Assembly: GCA_046758565.1 (NCBI GenBank)
Contig: JBHIAO010000171.1
Location: 1-11,063 of the forward strand
Source of the DNA: Anaerolineae bacterium
Lineage (GTDB): Bacteria > Chloroflexota > Anaerolineae > Epilineales > JAANWY01
Direction: 5' to 3'
DNA: 11,063 bases
Positions 1-7,570 of this stretch are shown one piece after another (the stretch's first letter is position 1; each line of letters opens with the position of its first letter). The translations under genes and the position numbers were made by a program. The notes beneath the pieces are model-generated. The model searched no databases, had not been told where the DNA came from, and saw only the letters and a program-made list of their open reading frames with translations.

Positions 1-854
1 TTGGGTCGGAACCACCTGTCGAAGAGCTGGTCCAGAGTGCCGTCGGCCTGCATGGCCTCCAGCACCATGTTCGTCGGCTCGATGAGGTCGGAGCCCTGTT
101 GGAAGACGAACCCCAGGAACTCGCCGGCGGTCACACGCGGACCGGCGATCTTCAGCTTGCCCAGGTTCTCGTTCATGAAGCCGACGGCCGCCACCTCGTC
201 GATGATGACCGCGTCCACATCGCCCGACATGAGGGCGCTGACGGGCAGGTCGAAGGTGTCGAAGGACTGGATGCGCCCCTCGCCCACGAGCTTGATGGCG
301 GTGGCCTCATTGGTGGTGCCCAGTTGGACTCCGATGACCTTGTCGGTGAGGGCGACCAGGGAGTCCTTGTCCTGGATGTCGGCTTCGTCGGCGCGGACCA
401 GGATGACCTGGCCGTACTCCATGTAGGGGTCGGAGAAGGCCACGACCTTCTTGCGCTCGTCGGTGATGGTGATGCCGTCAGCAGCGACGTCGAACTCACC
501 GGCGGCAGCGGCTTCGAAGATGCCCTCCCAGGCAGTTTCGACGAAGACCGGGCTGCAGTTGAGACGGCTACAGATTTCACGCCAGGCGTCGTAGTCCCAG
601 CCAACGCCTTCACCAGAGTCCTTGTCGATGACGTTGAAGGGCGGGTAGGCATTCTCCACCGCGATCCGCACCTCACGCCCGCCCAGGTCAGGGATCGCAG
701 CAGCGGGCTCCGGTGTAGGGGGCGGGGGAGCTATGGTTGCTGTGGGCGGAGGAGGTGAGGTGGGGGTGGGAGCAGCCGCCCTGCCACACCCGGCCACTAG
801 CAAAGCCAGAACTGCCAATGTCAGCAGCAGGAGGAACGCAATGTGCTTGCGCAT
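1..854 (-). CDS. Polar amino-acid ABC transporter substrate-binding lipoprotein (family-3 SBP), 5' partial; the 3' end lies beyond position 1
   Basis: I translated the minus strand by hand from the ATG at 854..852 and found no stops down to position 1. The product begins MRKHIAFLLLLTLAVLALLVAGCGRAAAPTPTSPPPTATIAPPPPTPEPAAAIPDLGGREVRIAVENAYPPFNVIDKDSGEGVGWDYDAWREI...GEFDVAADGITITDERKKVVAFSDPYMEYGQVILVRAD...DAVIIDEVAAVGFMNE.... It has a lipoprotein signal peptide with an LVAGC lipobox, then a Pro/Thr/Ala-rich linker, then SBP_bac_3-type motifs (GITITxER..VxFSxPY). An AGGAG RBS sits 8 nt upstream of the ATG. The gene is absent from the supplied ORF track; only its antisense and alternate-frame ORFs (99..758 +, 173..676 -) are listed. 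Confidence 0.8.
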   Translation of the reverse strand, partial: MRKHIAFLLLLTLAVLALLVAGCGRAAAPTPTSPPPPTATIAPPPPTPEPAAAIPDLGGREVRIAVENAYPPFNVIDKDSGEGVGWDYDAWREICSRLNCSPVFVETAWEGIFEAAAAGEFDVAADGITITDERKKVVAFSDPYMEYGQVILVRADEADIQDKDSLVALTDKVIGVQLGTTNEATAIKLVGEGRIQSFDTFDLPVSALMSGDVDAVIIDEVAAVGFMNENLGKLKIAGPRVTAGEFLGFVFQQGSDLIEPTNMVLEAMQADGTLDQLFDRWFRP

Positions 855-1089: not shown

Positions 1090-1118
1090 TTGTCAGCAGC
1101 CGAGAGCTGTGATATAAT
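1090..1118 (+). promoter_or_regulatory. Sigma70-type promoter: TTGTCA (1090-1095), 17-nt spacer, TGaTATAAT extended -10 (1110-1118); predicted TSS ~1125
   Basis: Direct read gives TTGTCA, then gcagccgagagctgtga (17 nt), then TATAAT. A TG sits 1 nt upstream of the -10 hexamer. The element is about 60 nt upstream of the GGAGG/GTG of the sORF at 1180. Confidence 0.5.
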
Positions 1119-1179
1119 TTGGATTGGGAACAGGTGTGAATGCAGGTCATCTGAGGCCTTGTCCGAAAGGAGGTCAAGT

Positions 1180-1323
1180 GTGACGCTTCCACGTCGCCGG
1201 CGCCAGAAGCGTGGGCAAAGGAAACAGCGTGACTGGAAGCAGATTGCTTTCTACGTGTTAAGTGCGTTGGTTGCCATCAGCATGGCGTCTGCCTACGCCC
1301 TCTCATACCTCGCGGGGCGGTGA
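1180..1323 (+). CDS. Small (47 aa) highly basic single-TM protein: MTLPRRRRQKRGQRKQRDWKQIAFYVLSALVAISMASAYALSYLAGR
   Basis: GGAGG at 1169-1173 lies 6 nt before an in-frame GTG at 1180, and a strong promoter sits upstream. The N-terminus is Arg/Lys-rich (12 of 19 residues) and is followed by about 22 hydrophobic residues. A TGA stop at 1321-1323 is followed directly by a large hairpin. It forms the 3' part of the 132-aa track ORF 925..1323, whose first ~85 codons look non-coding. Confidence 0.45.
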   Translation: MTLPRRRRQKRGQRKQRDWKQIAFYVLSALVAISMASAYALSYLAGR

Positions 1324-1332
1324 TCACTCACA

Positions 1333-1411
1333 GCCGGCGTAAAACGTAAAACGTGAAACGTGATGTCGCCATCTCGCACTCGCATCACGTTTCGCGTTTT
1401 ACGGCGCCCGG
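1333..1411. terminator. Long imperfect palindrome built from tandem heptamers (CGTAAAA CGTAAAA CGTGAAA CGTGATG / CATCACG TTTCGCG TTTTACG) with a GC clamp, placed between convergent genes; likely a bidirectional, U-tract-poor terminator or structured element
   Basis: The left arm (1338-1365) pairs with the right arm (1383-1403) with one wobble. An outer ccggcg/cgcccgg clamp bulges one extra heptamer. The loop is 17 nt. The element sits 10 nt after the sORF stop and 12 nt after the floT stop (1423-1425) on the opposite strand. Confidence 0.45.
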
Positions 1412-1422
1412 ATCGACTGATC

Positions 1423-2955
1423 CTATTCCTCAGGCTCGATCTCAACCTTTACCGGGCTTTCCCTGGATGCTCCACCATCGCCGGCTGCCCGCTTGAGGGC
1501 CGGCAGGTCCTGAATCGTGCGGATGATGTCGATGCCGGTGAGCGCCTCCACCGCCGCCGGCACCTGCGCGATGATTTCGGTGACGTCGCGGGTCACTCGG
1601 GAACTGCCGGCACCTCCGGCACTGTCACCGCCGATGACGACGATGCGATCGGTCTTGCTGAGCGGCTGAGCGATTGCGCCGGCCAACTCCGGCAGGCCGG
1701 CGAGCAACTGCTCGATGATGGCCGCCTGATTGTACATTGCCCAGGCTTCTGCCTTCTTCGCCTTGGCCTCGGCCTCAGCCAAACCCTGCTGCCGGATCAC
1801 TTCGGCCTGTGCCAGACCTTGTGCCTTGGCGACCTCAGCCTGTGCAATACCCCGTGCCCGGTTGGCATCGGCTTCACCCTCGCCGACCCGCCGCAACGCT
1901 GCCGCCTGACCTTCAGCCTCGGTCTCGGTCTGGAAGCGCTTGGCCTTGGCTAGCGTCTCAATACGGTACTGCTCGGCCTCGGCCGGCCTGCGGATCGTGG
2001 CCTCCAGCTCCTTCTCCTTGCGCAGTGCTTCCTGCTGCTGAACTTCGATCTGCTTCTGCTTGTCGATCACTTCGATCTGAACTTCTTCAGCCTTGACCTT
2101 CTGGTTGGTTATGGCCTGCTGGAGCGCGTAAGCCAGCTCAGCCTCGGCTGTCTGGCGATTGACCTCCGCGTCGTACTTGGCCTTTTGAACCTGGAAGTTC
2201 TTTTCGGCTTCGGCGATCTTGGTTTGTGCCAGGAATCGTGCTTCCTCACCCTCCTGCTCTGCCTCCGCCGAGCGAATCTTGGCATCCCGGGCCGCCAGTG
2301 CCTCACCGATTGCGGCGTCACGCTTGACTTCGGCCGTCCGGGCCTTGCCCAGGGCATCCAGGTAGCCTTCATCATCCCGGATGTCGCGGATGGTGAACGA
2401 GATAATCCCGAGACCCATGTTCGCCAGGTCGCCGGCGGCCACTTCCTGCACCTGCTGGGCGAAGGCATCCCGGTCTTTGTAGATCTCCTCGACTGACATC
2501 GTACCGAGGATGGCGCGTAGATGGCCCTCCAAAGTCTGTAGTGCCACCTGCTGGATCTCGCTCTCAGTCTTGCTCAGAAACTGTTCGGCCGCCGTGTAGA
2601 TCGAGACATCGTCGCCCCGGACTTTCACCTGGGCAACGCCATCGACGGTGACCGGAACACCTTTGACGGTGTAGACCTTCGGCGTCACCACATCAATGGT
2701 CATGATTTCCAACGAGAGATCGTCAACCCGTTCCACCACCGGCCAGATGAATGTACCACCACCCTTGACGATGCGAAAACCGACGGTCTCGGGCAGGCCG
2801 GTGACCGGGTTCACGATCTGACGCTTGCGGCCAGAAATGACCAGCACTTCGTTGGGGCCGACCTTCTTGTATCGCGTCGAATAGACGAACGCCAGTGTCA
2901 GCAATACAAACAACAGAGCGAAAATAGCGAAACTTGCACCTAGTAGTCCCACCAT
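1423..2955 (-). CDS. floT: Flotillin (SPFH/Band-7 domain protein, long FloT/YuaG type with Ala/Glu-rich coiled-coil repeats), ~510 aa
   Basis: The ORF has an N-terminal TM helix (LLGASFAIFALLFVLLTLAFVY) followed by an SPFH domain. A long EA-rich region (AEAEQEGEEA..., KAEAWAMYNQA) follows and the C-terminus ends in a flotillin-type tail. I chose the ATG at 2955..2953 as the start, because GGAGG at 2967..2963 lies 7 nt upstream of it. The track ORF starts 6 codons earlier, at 2973, and that earlier ATG overlaps the RBS. The gene is immediately downstream of an NfeD-like gene, as in yuaF-floT. Confidence 0.9.
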   Translation of the reverse strand: MVGLLGASFAIFALLFVLLTLAFVYSTRYKKVGPNEVLVISGRKRQIVNPVTGLPETVGFRIVKGGGTFIWPVVERVDDLSLEIMTIDVVTPKVYTVKGVPVTVDGVAQVKVRGDDVSIYTAAEQFLSKTESEIQQVALQTLEGHLRAILGTMSVEEIYKDRDAFAQQVQEVAAGDLANMGLGIISFTIRDIRDDEGYLDALGKARTAEVKRDAAIGEALAARDAKIRSAEAEQEGEEARFLAQTKIAEAEKNFQVQKAKYDAEVNRQTAEAELAYALQQAITNQKVKAEEVQIEVIDKQKQIEVQQQEALRKEKELEATIRRPAEAEQYRIETLAKAKRFQTETEAEGQAAALRRVGEGEADANRARGIAQAEVAKAQGLAQAEVIRQQGLAEAEAKAKKAEAWAMYNQAAIIEQLLAGLPELAGAIAQPLSKTDRIVVIGGDSAGGAGSSRVTRDVTEIIAQVPAAVEALTGIDIIRTIQDLPALKRAAGDGGASRESPVKVEIEPEE

Positions 2956-2981
2956 CTTTATGCCTCCTACCATAAGTCGAA

Positions 2982-3059
2982 GTGATCAGTAATCAGTAAT
3001 CAGTGATCAGTAGTCAAAATCTGAAACTGATTACTGATTACTGATCACTGATTACTGAC
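2982..3059. repeat. ~78-bp palindrome made of tandem 7-bp repeats: (GTRATCA)x5, loop aaatctgaaa, (CTGATYA)x4+; predicted ~31-bp hairpin in the nfeD-floT intercistronic region
   Basis: The left arm is GTGATCA GTAATCA GTAATCA GTGATCA GTAGTCA (2982-3016). The right arm is CTGATTA CTGATTA CTGATCA CTGATTA CTGAC (3027-3059). The arms are reverse complements with about 3 non-Watson-Crick positions. The right arm overlaps the last 5 codons of nfeD, and the left arm ends 15 nt before the floT RBS. Confidence 0.6.
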
Positions 3060-3650
3060 TTCATCAAGTGGCCTAACGATTGCCACGTTCCCGACTATGC
3101 GTTCGATCGTGACCACCGTGCCCCGCGGGATTGACTGCCCGCCGGCTGCTCGGGCGCTGGTTGTGACCCGCCCGCCACGCGCCACGAAGGCCACCTCTCC
3201 CAGCCGGCCCGGCGCGATGCGTGTGATCACCTCGCCTGTTGCTCCGATGACATGCGCCGCCGTCACCTCACTGGAACTCTGCGGCGCAATCAGGAAATAT
3301 CCGAAGGCGAAGTGTGCTATCGCAGCGATGACCAGGGCGCCGGCCGCCGCCCAGAGCAAACTGGCCTGGGCCGAGACGTTGAACAATCCCGTCGAAATGA
3401 GTCCGAATGCGCCGAACGCGGTGATGAAACTGGCGATGGTCACCGGGCTCAAAGAAGTGACGCTCACGTCGCCGTGCTCGAAGGAAATATCATGGCCGCC
3501 GCTGAGGTCGACGTCGCCACCACCGAAGCCGAAGTCATGCAACTCGCCGGCAACCAGGATGACGACGGCATAGACGACGCCGACGATGAGCAACGCGAAA
3601 TACAGGCAGCTCAATGTCGAGAGATTTGCCAGGTCCGTCAACTGTGTCAT
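3045..3650 (-). CDS. NfeD-like (YuaF-like short NfeD homolog) membrane protein, the usual flotillin operon partner, 201 aa
   Basis: The N-terminal half is hydrophobic, with TM helices (LYFALLIVGVVYAVVILVAG; FITAFGAFGLISTGLF; LLWAAAGALVIAAIAHFAFGYFLI). The C-terminal ~70 aa (VIGATGEVITRIAPGRLGEVAFVARGGRVTTSARAAGGQSIPRGTVVTIERIVGNVAIVRP) fits an OB-fold beta-barrel. The gene is directly upstream of, and co-oriented with, flotillin. Established knowledge: nfeD and flotillin genes are syntenic and co-transcribed in many bacteria. Confidence 0.8.
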   Translation of the reverse strand: MTQLTDLANLSTLSCLYFALLIVGVVYAVVILVAGELHDFGFGGGDVDLSGGHDISFEHGDVSVTSLSPVTIASFITAFGAFGLISTGLFNVSAQASLLWAAAGALVIAAIAHFAFGYFLIAPQSSSEVTAAHVIGATGEVITRIAPGRLGEVAFVARGGRVTTSARAAGGQSIPRGTVVTIERIVGNVAIVRPLDEVSNQ

Positions 3651-3830: not shown

Positions 3831-5147
3831 TTAAGCCAACCCGCTGAAAACCTCGTGAATTCTGCCGGCTTTGATGACCGTGGATACCAGGTCCTCCCCG
3901 AACCGATACGCCAGGTGACGGTAATCTGGCACGTCGAGGATGACGAGGTCGCCGGCCTTGCCCGGTTCCAGGCTCCCCACTTTCTCGCCGACGCCTGACG
4001 CATAGGCCGCATTGATCGTGGCGGCCACGACGGCCTCGGCAGGTGTCAAGTGCAGGTAGCGCGTGGCCAGGGCGATCATGAACGGCATTGAAACACACCA
4101 GCATGTGCCTGGATTGATGTCGGTCCCCAGGGCAATCGACAGCCCTCGTTCAATCATGGTACGGGCGTCAGCGTAGTGATTGGAGCCTAGACCGAAGGTC
4201 GTCCCCGGCAACAATACGCCGACCATGCCGACCTCGGCCATTTGCTCGATTTCTGCGTGGGGAGTTACGGTCAGGTGATCGGCGGACGTGGCGCGCAGCT
4301 CAGCCGCCAGTGCTGCACCGCCCAGGGATCCGAACTCGTCGGCATGTATCTTGAGCCCCAGCCCCAACTCGCGCGCCCTTTCCAGCACACGCCTGGACTG
4401 GGCCAGATTGAAGGCCCCGGCGTCGCAGAAGACATCGACGAAGACCGCCACTGGGTGATCCTTGCCGGCTGCCACGTTGGCGAGTGGGGGCAGGAGTGCA
4501 TCGGCCACGGCGATGCGTGGCAGCATCTCATCGACAACCTCGTCGATGAAGTCGTCAGCTCGGCCGCGGTATTCGTCTGGAACGGCGTGGGCTGCCAGGA
4601 ACGTGGGTATCAGATCGATGGGATGCTCGGTGTTCAGGACGGAAATGGCTGCCAATATCTTCAGCTCGTCGTCGAACGTCAGGCCGTAGCCAGTCTTGGC
4701 CTCGGCAGTCGTGGTCCCATAGGTCAGCATCGCGTTGAGTCGCTTGCGCGACTGTGCGATGAGCTCTTGTAGCGACGCCAGTCGCGTCGCGCGCACCGTG
4801 GACATGATGCCGCCACCGGCCGCCATGATTTTCTGGTAGGTCGCGCCAGCAATGCGCTGTTCAAACTCCTCCACCCGGTCGCCGGCAAAGACCACATGCG
4901 TGTGGGCATCCACGAAGCCGGGTATGATGACGTGGCCGGCAGCGTCCATCTCTGCCCTCGCCACAACAGCGCTCTTAACCTCGGTCGTCGGCCCGACATG
5001 GGTGATCTGGCCATCGAGAATAGCGACAGCGCCGTTCTCAATCAGGCCAATGTCTCGCTGATTGACACCACTCAGCGGGCCATCTGGCGCAGTACAGGTG
5101 AGTAGTTGGGAGGCACTGTGGATGAGTAGATCTACGTTCTTAGTCAT
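3831..5147 (-). CDS. hutI: Imidazolonepropionase (HutI, amidohydrolase superfamily), 438 aa
   Basis: The ORF carries HutI hallmarks: PGFVDAHTHVVFAG (metal-binding HxH), GGGIMSTVRATR, MLTYGTTTAEAKTGYGL, LKIHADEFGSLGGAALAAELRATSADHL, LLPGTTFGLG, ALGTDINPGT, NAAYA.G.GE. Collinear similarity to B. subtilis HutI runs along the full length. The start ATG at 5147..5145 is 18 nt after the livF stop. Confidence 0.9.
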   Translation of the reverse strand: MTKNVDLLIHSASQLLTCTAPDGPLSGVNQRDIGLIENGAVAILDGQITHVGPTTEVKSAVVARAEMDAAGHVIIPGFVDAHTHVVFAGDRVEEFEQRIAGATYQKIMAAGGGIMSTVRATRLASLQELIAQSRKRLNAMLTYGTTTAEAKTGYGLTFDDELKILAAISVLNTEHPIDLIPTFLAAHAVPDEYRGRADDFIDEVVDEMLPRIAVADALLPPLANVAAGKDHPVAVFVDVFCDAGAFNLAQSRRVLERARELGLGLKIHADEFGSLGGAALAAELRATSADHLTVTPHAEIEQMAEVGMVGVLLPGTTFGLGSNHYADARTMIERGLSIALGTDINPGTCWCVSMPFMIALATRYLHLTPAEAVVAATINAAYASGVGEKVGSLEPGKAGDLVILDVPDYRHLAYRFGEDLVSTVIKAGRIHEVFSGLA

Positions 5148-5165: not shown

Positions 5166-5870
5166 TTATATCAGTAGATACCTCTGCCTCACTTCGTCGT
5201 TCTCTCTTAGTTCCGCAACGCTCCCCTCGTAACGGATTCGGCCGTTATCAATAATGTAGCCGCGATCGCTTAGCCTTAGGGCAGACCTCACATTCTGTTC
5301 GGCCAGGAGAACAGTCAAGCCGGCCTCCTTCAGCTTTGCTATCTGCTCCTCCAGGGCGCGCACCAGCAGCGGCGCCAGCCCCTCAGTGGGCTCGTCAAGG
5401 AGCAAGAGTTCTGGATTGCCCATTAGAGCCCGCGCGATGGCCAACATCTTTTGCTCGCCACCGCTCAGGTGACCGCCCCGGTTGGACTCTTTCTCTTTCA
5501 GGACGGGGAAGAGCTCGTAAACCTTCTCATTATCCCACCCCCAGTCCCAGTTACCACTTGCCGGCTTGGCAGCTATCTCGAGATTGTCCCGAACCGTGAG
5601 ATCAGCGAAGATCCTCCTATCGTCAGGGACGTAGCCTATCCCTTTGCGGGCCCGCAAATACGGTTCTTCACCAGTTATTTCCTCCCCCTTGAGCTTGATG
5701 CTCCCTTGCTGCGGCGGCGTAAGACCCATGATGCTCTTCAGAGTGGTGGTCTTTCCTGCCCCATTCCGGCCCAGGAGACACACGACCTCGCCCGGCTCAA
5801 CCCTGAGCGAGACGCCAAACAGGATATGGCTCAAACCGTAGTAAGTGTGAATTCCCTCCACCGCAAGCAT
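5166..5870 (-). CDS. livF: HAAT-family (LIV-type) ABC transporter ATP-binding protein, LivF-like, 234 aa
   Basis: It has a Walker A (GRNGAGKTTT), an ABC signature (LSGGEQKM) and a Walker B (LLLLDEP). The length is typical of the second ATPase in a LIV system. Its ATG overlaps the livG stop (ATGA at 5872..5868). Confidence 0.85.
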   Translation of the reverse strand: MLAVEGIHTYYGLSHILFGVSLRVEPGEVVCLLGRNGAGKTTTLKSIMGLTPPQQGSIKLKGEEITGEEPYLRARKGIGYVPDDRRIFADLTVRDNLEIAAKPASGNWDWGWDNEKVYELFPVLKEKESNRGGHLSGGEQKMLAIARALMGNPELLLLDEPTEGLAPLLVRALEEQIAKLKEAGLTVLLAEQNVRSALRLSDRGYIIDNGRIRYEGSVAELRENDEVRQRYLLI

Positions 5871-6604
5871 CACTGGCCTCCGAGATAAGCCTCCTGCACT
5901 TCCTTGTTGGTTTTCACCTCTTCCAGCGTTCCCTGGATGAGGGTTCGTCCCTGGTGCATAACCATAATGCTCTCGGCAACAGAGAATACCACATCCATGT
6001 CATGTTCGCAAAACAAGATGGTTATGCCCCGTGTATGGGCGAGTTGCCTAACGAGTTCCATCGTTGCGAACGTTTCCTCCGGAGACATACCGGCGGTAGG
6101 TTCATCCAGAATCAGCAACTCCGGTTCGTTGCCTAAAGCCATAGCTATCTCCAGGACTCTCTGGTCGCCATGGGACAGGGAGCCGGCGATGTTCCTGGCT
6201 TTATCTGAAAGACCCAAGCTTCCCAATATACTGTGTGTCTCTTCAACGGCCAGGGTCCGGGCTGGGCGGAAAAGGTGAGAGCTTCTGCGTTGCTGGGAGA
6301 GTACGGCTACCTGAACGTTCTCGAAAACGGTGAGCCGGGGGAAGATGTTGGCTATTTGAAACGACCTGGCAATTCCTCTCTCGCAAATCTGGTACGGGGG
6401 CAGTCCACTGATATCCTCCCCCTTAAAGATTATCTTTCCCCGATTCGGCTTCAGTTGACCGGTAATGAGATTAAACAAGGTGGTTTTGCCGGCGCCGTTG
6501 GGTCCGATCACCACCACCAGCTCACCATCCGCCACGGTAAGGTTCGCTCCGTTCACCGCCACAAAGTCGCCGAACGACTTGTATACGGCGTCCACCTGCA
6601 ACAT
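5870..6604 (-). CDS. livG: HAAT-family (LIV-type) ABC transporter ATP-binding protein, LivG-like, 244 aa
   Basis: It has a Walker A (GPNGAGKTTLFN), a signature (LSHGDQRVLEIAMAL) and a Walker B (LLILDEP). Its ATG at 6604..6602 abuts the livM stop (6607..6605). Confidence 0.85.
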   Translation of the reverse strand: MLQVDAVYKSFGDFVAVNGANLTVADGELVVVIGPNGAGKTTLFNLITGQLKPNRGKIIFKGEDISGLPPYQICERGIARSFQIANIFPRLTVFENVQVAVLSQQRRSSHLFRPARTLAVEETHSILGSLGLSDKARNIAGSLSHGDQRVLEIAMALGNEPELLILDEPTAGMSPEETFATMELVRQLAHTRGITILFCEHDMDVVFSVAESIMVMHQGRTLIQGTLEEVKTNKEVQEAYLGGQ

Positions 6605-7570
6605 CTACTTGCTGCCCCTTTCCGCTACCGCTTTTTCAGGCTGGGGCTCAAATCGCTCCAGCAAGTAACCCAGAACCCCCTGTGGCAAGAAGAAGATGAG
6701 CAGGATCAGGACTACCCCCAAAACCAAAGTCCAGTACTCCGTATAACTGCCGACGAAAGTTCGCAGTGCCACGATCATTGCCGCCCCTACCGCCGGTCCA
6801 AGAAAAGTGAACCAACCTCCTAGAAGGCACATGATGAATATCTCGAGCGACAGAACCCAGAATAGCAGGTCAGGGAAAACGGAATGTTCTAGCACCACGA
6901 AAAGAACGCCGGCCACCCCAGCGAAGAAGCTGGCAATCACTATTGCCAGCAGTTGATGGCGCCTCACATTAACACCGATCGCCTCACATCGCTGCGGATT
7001 GTCCCTGATGGCCTGAAGTGTAGCCCCGAACGGGGATTTCACAATGATGAACAGAGCTACCAGACAAATTACAAAGATGAGCAGAATGAAGTAATACGAA
7101 TTGTTGACGGGGGATAGGATTGACGGGATAGGAATGCCGTGTAGGCCATCATCTCCGCCAGTAAAGGAGTACCATCGAAAAACGACGGCCCAGATCAGTG
7201 AACCTAAGGAAATCTGGAGCATACCAAAATACAGCTCGGTCAACCGAACGCAAAACCATCCGATGAGCAGCCCTACCACTGCTGCTGCGATTGGTCCAGC
7301 GATGAAGCCCACCCACGCAGGCAGGGAAGTTTTCGTCAACGTCAGAGCGACGGCATATGCCCCTACGCCATAGAAAACGGCGTGATGAAACTGAAACAGA
7401 CCGCCGTAGCCGAGGGCCAGGTTGAGGCTCATAGCCACCAAGGCGGTGACGAAAATCAAAGCCAGTAGATAGACGTAGAATAGGGGTACCAAGGCCGGCA
7501 AGACCAGCAAGACAGTCAGAATAGCTACTGCTGACCCGAGCCACCTCCGATTAACGATTCCTGTGAGCAA
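6605..7570 (-). CDS. livM: HAAT-family ABC transporter permease, LivM-like, 321 aa (TTG start)
   Basis: It is a polytopic membrane protein with 8 or more hydrophobic helices and a LivM-type architecture. It is followed immediately by livG. The predicted start is TTG at 7570, with an AGGAGG only 4 nt upstream (short spacing). This suggests translational coupling to livH, whose stop is at 7585..7583. Confidence 0.8.
   Translation of the reverse strand: MLTGIVNRRWLGSAVAILTVLLVLPALVPLFYVYLLALIFVTALVAMSLNLALGYGGLFQFHHAVFYGVGAYAVALTLTKTSLPAWVGFIAGPIAAAVVGLLIGWFCVRLTELYFGMLQISLGSLIWAVVFRWYSFTGGDDGLHGIPIPSILSPVNNSYYFILLIFVICLVALFIIVKSPFGATLQAIRDNPQRCEAIGVNVRRHQLLAIVIASFFAGVAGVLFVVLEHSVFPDLLFWVLSLEIFIMCLLGGWFTFLGPAVGAAMIVALRTFVGSYTEYWTLVLGVVLILLIFFLPQGVLGYLLERFEPQPEKAVAERGSK

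Follow-up and report, generated by a model that had tools for sequence, protein, structure and literature searches.

A 47-codon gene convergent with floT in an Anaerolineae genome belongs to a family of predicted small membrane proteins

The stretch of 11,063 nucleotides analysed here (contig JBHIAO010000171.1, hereafter the window) comes from a metagenome-assembled genome (MAG) of the Anaerolineae and contains, at positions 1180-1323 of the plus strand, a small open reading frame (sORF) of 47 codons that lies convergent with the flotillin gene floT. Judged by its pattern of codon substitution, this sORF is a real protein-coding gene under purifying selection, and structure modelling supports the prediction that its 47-amino-acid (aa) product is a single-pass membrane protein. 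The product can be assigned to a family of small proteins which, as profile searches indicate, is previously unmodelled and specific to Anaerolineae and Thermoflexia. Regarding function, it seems moderately probable that the sORF is a monocistronic gene for a small membrane protein with a cytoplasmic N-terminus and an external C-terminus (N-in/C-out), which would use contacts of its helix either to fulfil an accessory or regulatory role or to form homo-oligomers.

Evidence for a coding gene

The peptide encoded by the sORF is MTLPRRRRQKRGQRKQRDWKQIAFYVLSALVAISMASAYALSYLAGR. Four further clusters were found by protein search, all exactly 47 aa long and 72-83% identical, and three more loci carrying the sORF were found by genome scan in Anaerolineae or Anaerolineales MAGs; all seven orthologues have 47 codons. 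Across five lineages, the pairwise ratio of nonsynonymous to synonymous substitution rates (dN/dS) ranges from 0.05 to 0.27, with dS from 0.3 to above 1, and the 56 variable columns fall on codon positions 1, 2 and 3 in the proportion 10/12/34 (binomial p = 2.5e-5). The frame of the sORF is the only one that is free of stops in 7/7 orthologues, the other five all carrying them. Its start codon can be ATG, GTG or TTG and is always found at one fixed position, and the Shine-Dalgarno segment GAAAGGAGGT is invariant across the five lineages. Outside these conserved elements, the sequence drifts freely between orthologues, in the 5' leader and upstream region as well as in the 3' spacer. An excess of synonymous changes can also be seen in several distant pairs of family members. 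In the window clade FloT is ~90% identical (90-92%); the peptide evolves faster than FloT yet is clearly constrained. A preliminary description of this DNA had proposed conservation of the frame and dN/dS as checks on the ORF, and it came through both. It had also placed the ORF below the size cutoff of most annotation pipelines, which proves incorrect, as GenBank already carries it as the hypothetical protein ACE5LU_14045.

Another suggestion of the preliminary description was that the promoter may drive a small non-coding RNA (sRNA). In this explanation the transcript would end at the hairpin that follows the ORF, the ORF itself being incidental, or else a larger gene would have decayed, with the ORF as what is left of its N-terminus. 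The unit from promoter to hairpin, at ~285 nt, is indeed of sRNA size, and the same module can be found elsewhere as the N-terminus of a larger protein. Both versions are nevertheless contradicted by the codon-periodic substitutions with a dN/dS of ~0.1, by the conservation of start, stop and Shine-Dalgarno sequence between a leader and a 3' spacer that drift, and by the architecture shared among ~75 protein clusters. No Rfam match at gathering thresholds was obtained in the whole window, and at E < 1 in the region 1000-1450 the only one was to a microRNA hairpin model, which matched the terminator below threshold (22 bits vs 67). The sRNA suggestion is thus unsupported, and this explanation, remnant included, has a barely appreciable probability.

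Two other interpretations of the frame were considered and rejected. An in-frame ORF of 132 aa (925-1323) would include an upstream open stretch that crosses the promoter and whose length in the orthologues is anywhere between 6 and 94 codons. An Arg/Lys-rich leader peptide controlling a downstream gene would find no co-directional downstream gene in the window, and the conserved part of the peptide is the helix.

A family of small proteins from Anaerolineae and Thermoflexia

When 1.84 billion representative proteins were searched with a profile of five sequences, eight matches were obtained, all of 35-50 aa, and iterated profiles gave 26 and then ~75 clusters at E < 1e-3, with lengths of 37-82 aa (24-sequence profile). 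The family alignments are A3, A4 and A5; the metagenome scan was run with the narrower alignment A6. The ~75 clusters have no precomputed Pfam domain and, wherever they are labelled, belong to Anaerolineae or Thermoflexia (phylum Chloroflexota). With these profiles, the window peptide obtains 83-113 bits. For the family, no match that reached the threshold came from Pfam, NCBIfam, PADLOC, PHROGs or a PDB sequence search, and NCBIfam gave no match to the window peptide at E < 10. In the literature, no description was found of this family or of a third small protein of flotillin operons.

Family members can be recognized by a basic N-terminus, in which MARK is a frequent beginning, followed by R-D-W-[KR]-Q-I-x-F-Y-V-L-S-x-L-V-x-I-S-M-A-x-G-Y-V-L. 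Conservation is centred on R17, W19, I22, F24, S28, V31, I33, S34, M35 and G38; S34 is the same in all members, and I22, S28 and M35 hardly vary. The N-terminus is kept in composition only, its net charge being +4 to +11 and its length variable. Three forms of C-terminus can be distinguished, i.e., an end a few residues past the helix (as in the window), a Pro/Thr-rich tail, or a Pro/Thr linker with a short second hydrophobic stretch.

Membrane architecture and topology

In the window peptide, the polybasic residues 1-21 have a net charge of +9, or +10 with the free amino terminus, and the C-terminal side of the helix has +1. The preliminary description had proposed a very basic N-terminal domain with a net charge of about +11 followed by one transmembrane helix; this architecture holds, but the charge has to be lowered to the values just given. 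The helix covers approximately residues 22-44, with a Kyte-Doolittle hydropathy of 1.87 over the core residues 22-40, and in all family members the 19-residue core has a hydropathy of 1.9-3.0. AF2 modelling with the family alignment gives one helix at residues 10-45, which is confident (predicted local distance difference test score, pLDDT, ~90) only over residues 21-40.

An N-in/C-out topology is predicted because the charge is +9 before the helix and +1 after it, and it is supported indirectly by a natural fusion. In three loci (L029, L035 and L037), the sORF module and a Pro/Thr/Ala linker constitute the N-terminus of a calcineurin-like metallophosphoesterase of ~310 aa, the enzyme domain of which is recognized as Pfam Metallophos with 60.5 bits; identity over the module is 54-59%. 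The module probably serves as a type II signal anchor in these proteins, and its fusion to an exported enzyme thus supports an N-in/C-out arrangement for the sORF protein. The C-terminal tails of other family members are rich in Pro and Thr, as linkers outside the cytoplasm typically are. The preliminary description had left the choice between N-in and N-out to topology prediction, and charge distribution and fusion both point to N-in. With low probability, the combination of basic tail and helix might represent a class-specific signal for membrane targeting or sorting, either free-standing or fused to an exported enzyme. Free-standing forms far outnumber the Metallophos-fused form.

Promoter, translation start and flanking hairpins

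The sORF is preceded by a sigma-70-type promoter with an extended -10 element (Table 1), which scores 11/12 plus the TG and is the top sigma-70-like site of the window; a promoter of such quality occurs in 0.3% of 400 Markov-1 simulated windows. It had been listed as one of the cleanest promoters of the window (TTGTCA-17-TGaTATAAT), followed by a GGAGG-6nt-GTG start, and both descriptions are accurate to the position, the GGAGG being separated by a 6-nt gap from the GTG at 1180. The pattern TTGnnn-17/18-TGnTATAAT recurs before the sORF start in L002, L004, L006, L007, L008, L011/12, L020 and L021/22, at a distance of 28-39 nt from the start codon. In L007 the distance is 116 nt because the leader contains an extra palindrome of ~38 nt, GTTAGACCCTAAAGGTTTCTGAAAACCTTTAGGGTCTG (L007 4916-4955, also found in L001), which may be a small inserted repeat element. 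A promoter and a GGAGG-type Shine-Dalgarno sequence are present even in members that are 45-57% identical (P0008, P0009, P0016). In the sub-clade with Pro/Thr tails, the sORF is found behind upstream genes of the same strand, with no obvious promoter of its own. These sites suggest that Anaerolineae-type organisms use, and have conserved, extended -10 promoters of near-consensus sigma-70 type.

The expression signals bear on the question of whether the peptide could be a type I toxin-like or pore-forming peptide that depolarises the membrane when overproduced. The peptide is indeed small and hydrophobic, one of its ends is charged and its gene stands alone, and two relatives display a very weak, non-significant PHROG similarity to holin and hemolysin helices (E = 0.08-0.23). 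However, a near-consensus promoter together with a consensus Shine-Dalgarno sequence means that synthesis must be constitutive and high, and an unrepressed toxin is not compatible with this. No significant fold hiding the Shine-Dalgarno sequence is seen in the 5' leader (z = -0.09), and no minus-strand promoter-like site overlaps 1125-1410, although a consensus scan could miss an unconventional antisense promoter. In most type I toxins, the order of charge first and then helix is reversed. The gene is under purifying selection, it keeps its chromosomal position across a bacterial class and looks vertically inherited, and no PADLOC match was obtained. A toxin is therefore highly improbable. The preliminary description had been reminded of small membrane regulators or toxin-like peptides: the small membrane protein can be retained, and the toxin-like interpretation is unsupported, as no antisense promoter-like site, significant leader fold or PADLOC match was found.

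On its 3' side, the sORF is separated from floT by a long and stable hairpin (Table 1), in the region of which the inverted repeats I5 and I6 were detected and which has no U-tract on either strand. This hairpin is presumed to be a bidirectional transcript end or a stabiliser for the convergent sORF and floT transcripts. The ORF had been said to end directly at a large hairpin; a large hairpin is indeed present, but it starts 13 nt past the stop codon. Sequence of the AAACGTR type can also be found in the hairpins of L002/3/10 and L007, and L004/6/8/9 have an unrelated GC-rich hairpin at the same position. Since two unrelated types of sequence share this position, the structure is conserved and the sequence is not.

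Another stable hairpin, with RATCAGT heptamer repeats, is located at 2981-3058 in the spacer between nfeD and floT (free energy -45.8 kcal/mol, z = -7.8), so that floT is flanked on both sides by hairpins with tandem-heptamer arms (RATCAGT and AAACGTR). The RATCAGT hairpin recurs between nfeD and floT, with a variable number of repeats, in L004, L007 and L008; it is replaced by an unrelated hairpin in L009 and by three tandem copies of a GC-rich hairpin of ~45 nt in L023. This spacer hairpin may be an intra-operon element for processing, stability or attenuation that sets the ratio of NfeD to FloT.

Genomic neighbourhood

The sORF had correctly been described as convergent with floT, which lies on the opposite strand with nfeD next to it (Table 1). 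Throughout the window clade (7/7 genomes), sORF and floT-nfeD converge, with a long hairpin in the spacer, while the upstream neighbour changes at least 4 times, i.e., SBP(-), ABC ATPase(+), GH1(+) and a gene resembling pyruvate:ferredoxin oxidoreductase (PFOR-like, -). It can be hypothesized from this fixed adjacency that the peptide is a dedicated partner of NfeD-flotillin, recruited to flotillin assemblies or modulating them, for example through binding of its basic tail to an acidic Glu/Ala-rich region of FloT or to anionic raft lipids. The adjacency is also found in a distant family member (P0054 at L023, 39% identical), where nfeD-floT is again the immediate neighbour but in divergent and upstream position, with an EamA gene after the sORF; the nfeD product (162 aa) is 38% identical there and FloT 63%. 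The adjacency has thus survived or arisen in two configurations, which such a partnership would explain even with FloT only 63% identical.

The other lineages argue against this hypothesis. In the nearest outgroups (P0008 at L020; P0009 at L011-13 and L028), the sORF converges directly with the gene for the amidohydrolase orthologue (62-70% identical), beyond which lies urocanase, and flotillin is absent between the sORF and the amidohydrolase. As the outgroup sORF directly faces the amidohydrolase, nfeD-floT looks like an insertion or a deletion in an older arrangement. No flotillin was found within ±5-6 kb in L014-19, L024-27 and L029-38. There, the sORF follows an OadA-like gene and a biotin carboxyl carrier protein (BCCP) gene (L014-19), with proteins of 137 aa and 103 aa encoded after it in L016/17; it is placed between hisZGD on the opposite strand and genes for EamA and a 110-aa protein (L024-27); or it follows a GAF histidine kinase gene on the opposite strand (L030-38). 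Altogether, flotillin adjacency can be found in 2/~10 lineages (the window clade and L023), in two configurations, and is absent in at least 8 others, with the upstream side unseen for L016/17 and the downstream side for L021/22. Furthermore, the sORF and nfeD-floT always occupy opposite strands, in convergent orientation in the window clade and in divergent orientation in L023, and therefore are not co-transcribed. Flotillin operons have been described as consisting of nfeD plus flotillin only (PMC11222466).

Flotillin adjacency exceeds what pure chance would give, and retained ancestral synteny can also explain it. The gene orders suggest that the sORF family is not a component of flotillin operons. 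That the peptide is a dedicated NfeD-flotillin partner is rather unlikely, and there is similarly little reason to regard the family as a Chloroflexota-specific partner of the NfeD-flotillin (SPFH) scaffold, i.e., as a third small component of bacterial membrane microdomains. The membrane-microdomain association put forward in the preliminary description is therefore weak; the adjacency on which it was based is constant in the window clade but not general in the family.

In three distant lineages, one or two genes downstream of the sORF, a protein of ~105 aa was found that carries the motif NCPY[FY][FY]xDY[HF]RG[RQ]E near its N-terminus (Table 1). In two of these lineages the end of the sORF and the start of an EamA transporter gene are only 4-26 nt apart. 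The sORF, EamA and the ~105-aa protein may constitute a set of operon partners in that sub-clade.

Several observations concern the genes next to the sORF. The promoter-like site of the SBP_bac_3 gene, which stands back-to-back with that of the sORF, is kept on the minus strand in L021/L022 (GTTTGACA…CCTATACTGA). In the leader of the same gene, an upstream ORF of 26 codons, MRANEVVVRLTLPGWLPALCLKIAPT, with a strong Shine-Dalgarno sequence can be read at 958-878(-); it is absent from the orthologous leaders of L021/22 and is probably due to chance. A comparison of L002/L010 with the window, L007 and L021 indicates that in L002 the operon of an amino-acid ATP-binding cassette (ABC) transporter, comprising substrate-binding protein (SBP), permease and ATPase, is inverted relative to the window, the sORF-floT side being the same; the breakpoint of this rearrangement is located just upstream of the sORF promoter. 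The start of floT as mechanically listed (MVGGIKMVGLLGAS…) is probably 6 codons too long, and floT orthologues begin at the equivalent of the second Met (M[AV]GILGAS…).

Table 1. Positions of the sORF, its signals, neighbouring genes and related loci. Positions refer to the window unless a locus is named.
Feature	Position	Strand	Remarks
SBP_bac_3 lipoprotein gene of an ABC transporter	3-854	-	upstream neighbour of the sORF
Promoter-like site of the SBP_bac_3 gene	1056-1028	-	TTGACT-17-TATACT; back-to-back with the sORF promoter
sORF promoter, sigma-70 type, extended -10	1090-1118	+	TTGTCA 1090-1095, 17-nt spacer, TG 1110-1111, TATAAT 1113-1118
Inferred 5' leader (~55 nt)	1125-1179	+	transcription start inferred from the -10 position; GGAGG at 1169-1173
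sORF, coding sequence of 47 codons	1180-1323	+	GTG start, TGA stop 1321-1323; polybasic N-terminus and transmembrane helix
Long hairpin between sORF and floT	1336-1408	.	free energy -51.1 kcal/mol, z = -6.95; arms of AAACGTR heptamer repeats
floT	1423-2973	-	Band_7 and Flot domains by Pfam; convergent neighbour of the sORF
nfeD	3045-3650	-	beyond floT
Amidohydrolase gene	3831-5147	-	beyond nfeD
Liv-type ABC transporter, SPASM protein	past the amidohydrolase gene	-	
~105-aa protein	L016 826-1137; L024 6169-6501; L023 7354-7677		mutual identity 47-55%; no Pfam match
Metallophos fusions	L029 2629-3567; L035 ~6013-6945; L037 ~5594-6526		

Proposed mode of action

In the favoured explanation, the strong extended -10 promoter and the strong Shine-Dalgarno sequence would drive the synthesis of a 47-aa integral membrane protein. 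Its polybasic N-terminus of ~20 residues would stay in the cytoplasm, the helix of residues ~22-44 would span the membrane and ~3 residues would be exposed outside, as in tail-anchored proteins. The protein would then act inside the membrane by specific helix-helix contacts, either by assisting or regulating a larger membrane protein as one of its subunits or by forming a homo-oligomer, with the polybasic tail fixing the topology and binding an anionic surface (acidic lipids, nucleic acid or acidic protein). Action through the helix is considered most probable because the helix and its cytoplasmic interface motif R-D-W-[KR]-Q-I are conserved in sequence, whereas the tail is conserved only in charge. 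By analogy, we infer that an accessory or regulatory role of a small membrane protein would be the most likely one.

Three points weigh against this explanation. A single conserved face of the helix cannot be discerned, the helical moment not being significant (3709/5000 shuffles at least as high); contacts may be made all around the helix, or the family may lack the depth needed for one face to show. The gene neighbourhood varies (amidohydrolase/urocanase, OadA-BCCP, EamA, GAF kinase, nfeD-floT), with no consistent partner. Lastly, all genomes with family members are MAGs or metagenome contigs.

Alternatively, it is the polybasic tail that could be functional, by tethering to the membrane a polyanion such as the ribosome, rRNA, nucleoid DNA or RNA. 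A tether of this kind has been proposed for the ElaB/YqjD type of C-tail-anchored proteins, which bind ribosomes. A charge of +6 to +11 over 10-25 residues far exceeds what topology needs and is kept despite sequence drift, and the strong expression signals of the sORF are also consistent with this role. However, the helix and not the tail is conserved in sequence, the tail of P0007 has a charge of only +4 (possibly from a mis-called start), and no homology to ElaB/YqjD or to a nucleic-acid-binding family was found. A polyanion tether is accordingly improbable, if less so than a toxin.

Small membrane proteins have received little study, and those characterised so far come almost entirely from Proteobacteria and Firmicutes. 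With the present analysis, a family of ~75 clusters, for which neither Pfam nor NCBIfam has a model, is defined in the poorly studied Anaerolineae and Thermoflexia. It comes with a seed alignment, a topology prediction anchored on the fusion, and candidate partners, namely NfeD-FloT, EamA and the conserved, Cys-rich protein of 105 aa.

Comparison with known systems

Among the small proteins to which the family can be compared, OadG (the gamma/delta subunit of oxaloacetate/methylmalonyl-CoA decarboxylase, PF04277) is also a small single-helix protein. Some family members have OadG-like traits, i.e., a Pro-rich tail and, in two lineages, a position just after OadA-like and biotin-carrier genes (L014-19), and one has been machine-named OadG-type by the Joint Genome Institute (JGI). 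Identity with OadG was nevertheless rejected: a match was obtained for 1/25 members, with 15.2 bits vs a cut-off of 27, no OadB gene is found nearby, and the predicted topology is opposite. The window itself is without decarboxylase genes, and its peptide has no OAD_gamma match.

A weak similarity to Pfam DUF2116 (archaeal 'probable treble clef' small proteins) and to DUF5345 can be seen at their C-terminal part, where a basic stretch is followed by a helix; 11 and 8 of 25 family members, respectively, match at E < 1. All scores stay below the gathering cut-offs, the window peptide obtaining 12.6 vs 26.8 bits with DUF2116 and the best family member 22.6 vs 27, and the window peptide does not match DUF5345. 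The window peptide has no Cys or His for a zinc ribbon. The resemblance to both families is compositional and architectural only.

Type I toxins such as TisB, Hok and Fst are likewise small hydrophobic peptides with stand-alone genes; in contrast, no antisense RNA signal or repressive leader was found for the sORF, its signals are strong and look constitutive and it is syntenic. Homology extends to the putative type II signal anchor of the Metallophos proteins, where the basic N-terminus, the helix (…GQIFLYILSGVVVLSMALGYAF) and the Pro/Thr linker correspond to those of the family; the window protein, by contrast, ends 3 residues past the helix and lacks a passenger domain.

With AcrZ (49 aa), KdpF (29 aa), MgrB and YohP, the sORF protein shares a size of ≤50 aa, a single helix, a small gene of its own and conserved residues within the helix. 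There is no sequence relationship to these proteins, the tail of the sORF protein is unusually long and very basic (+9) and the family is restricted to Chloroflexota; also, unlike for acrZ, kdpF and mgrB, no operon points to a partner. Small single-helix bacterial proteins such as AcrZ, KdpF and MgrB act by binding larger membrane proteins (PMC12648545), and small single-helix membrane proteins are inserted by the signal recognition particle (PMC7549839). While the sORF family is itself undescribed and brings no new mechanism to light, it belongs to a well-known kind, that of the small single-pass membrane proteins.

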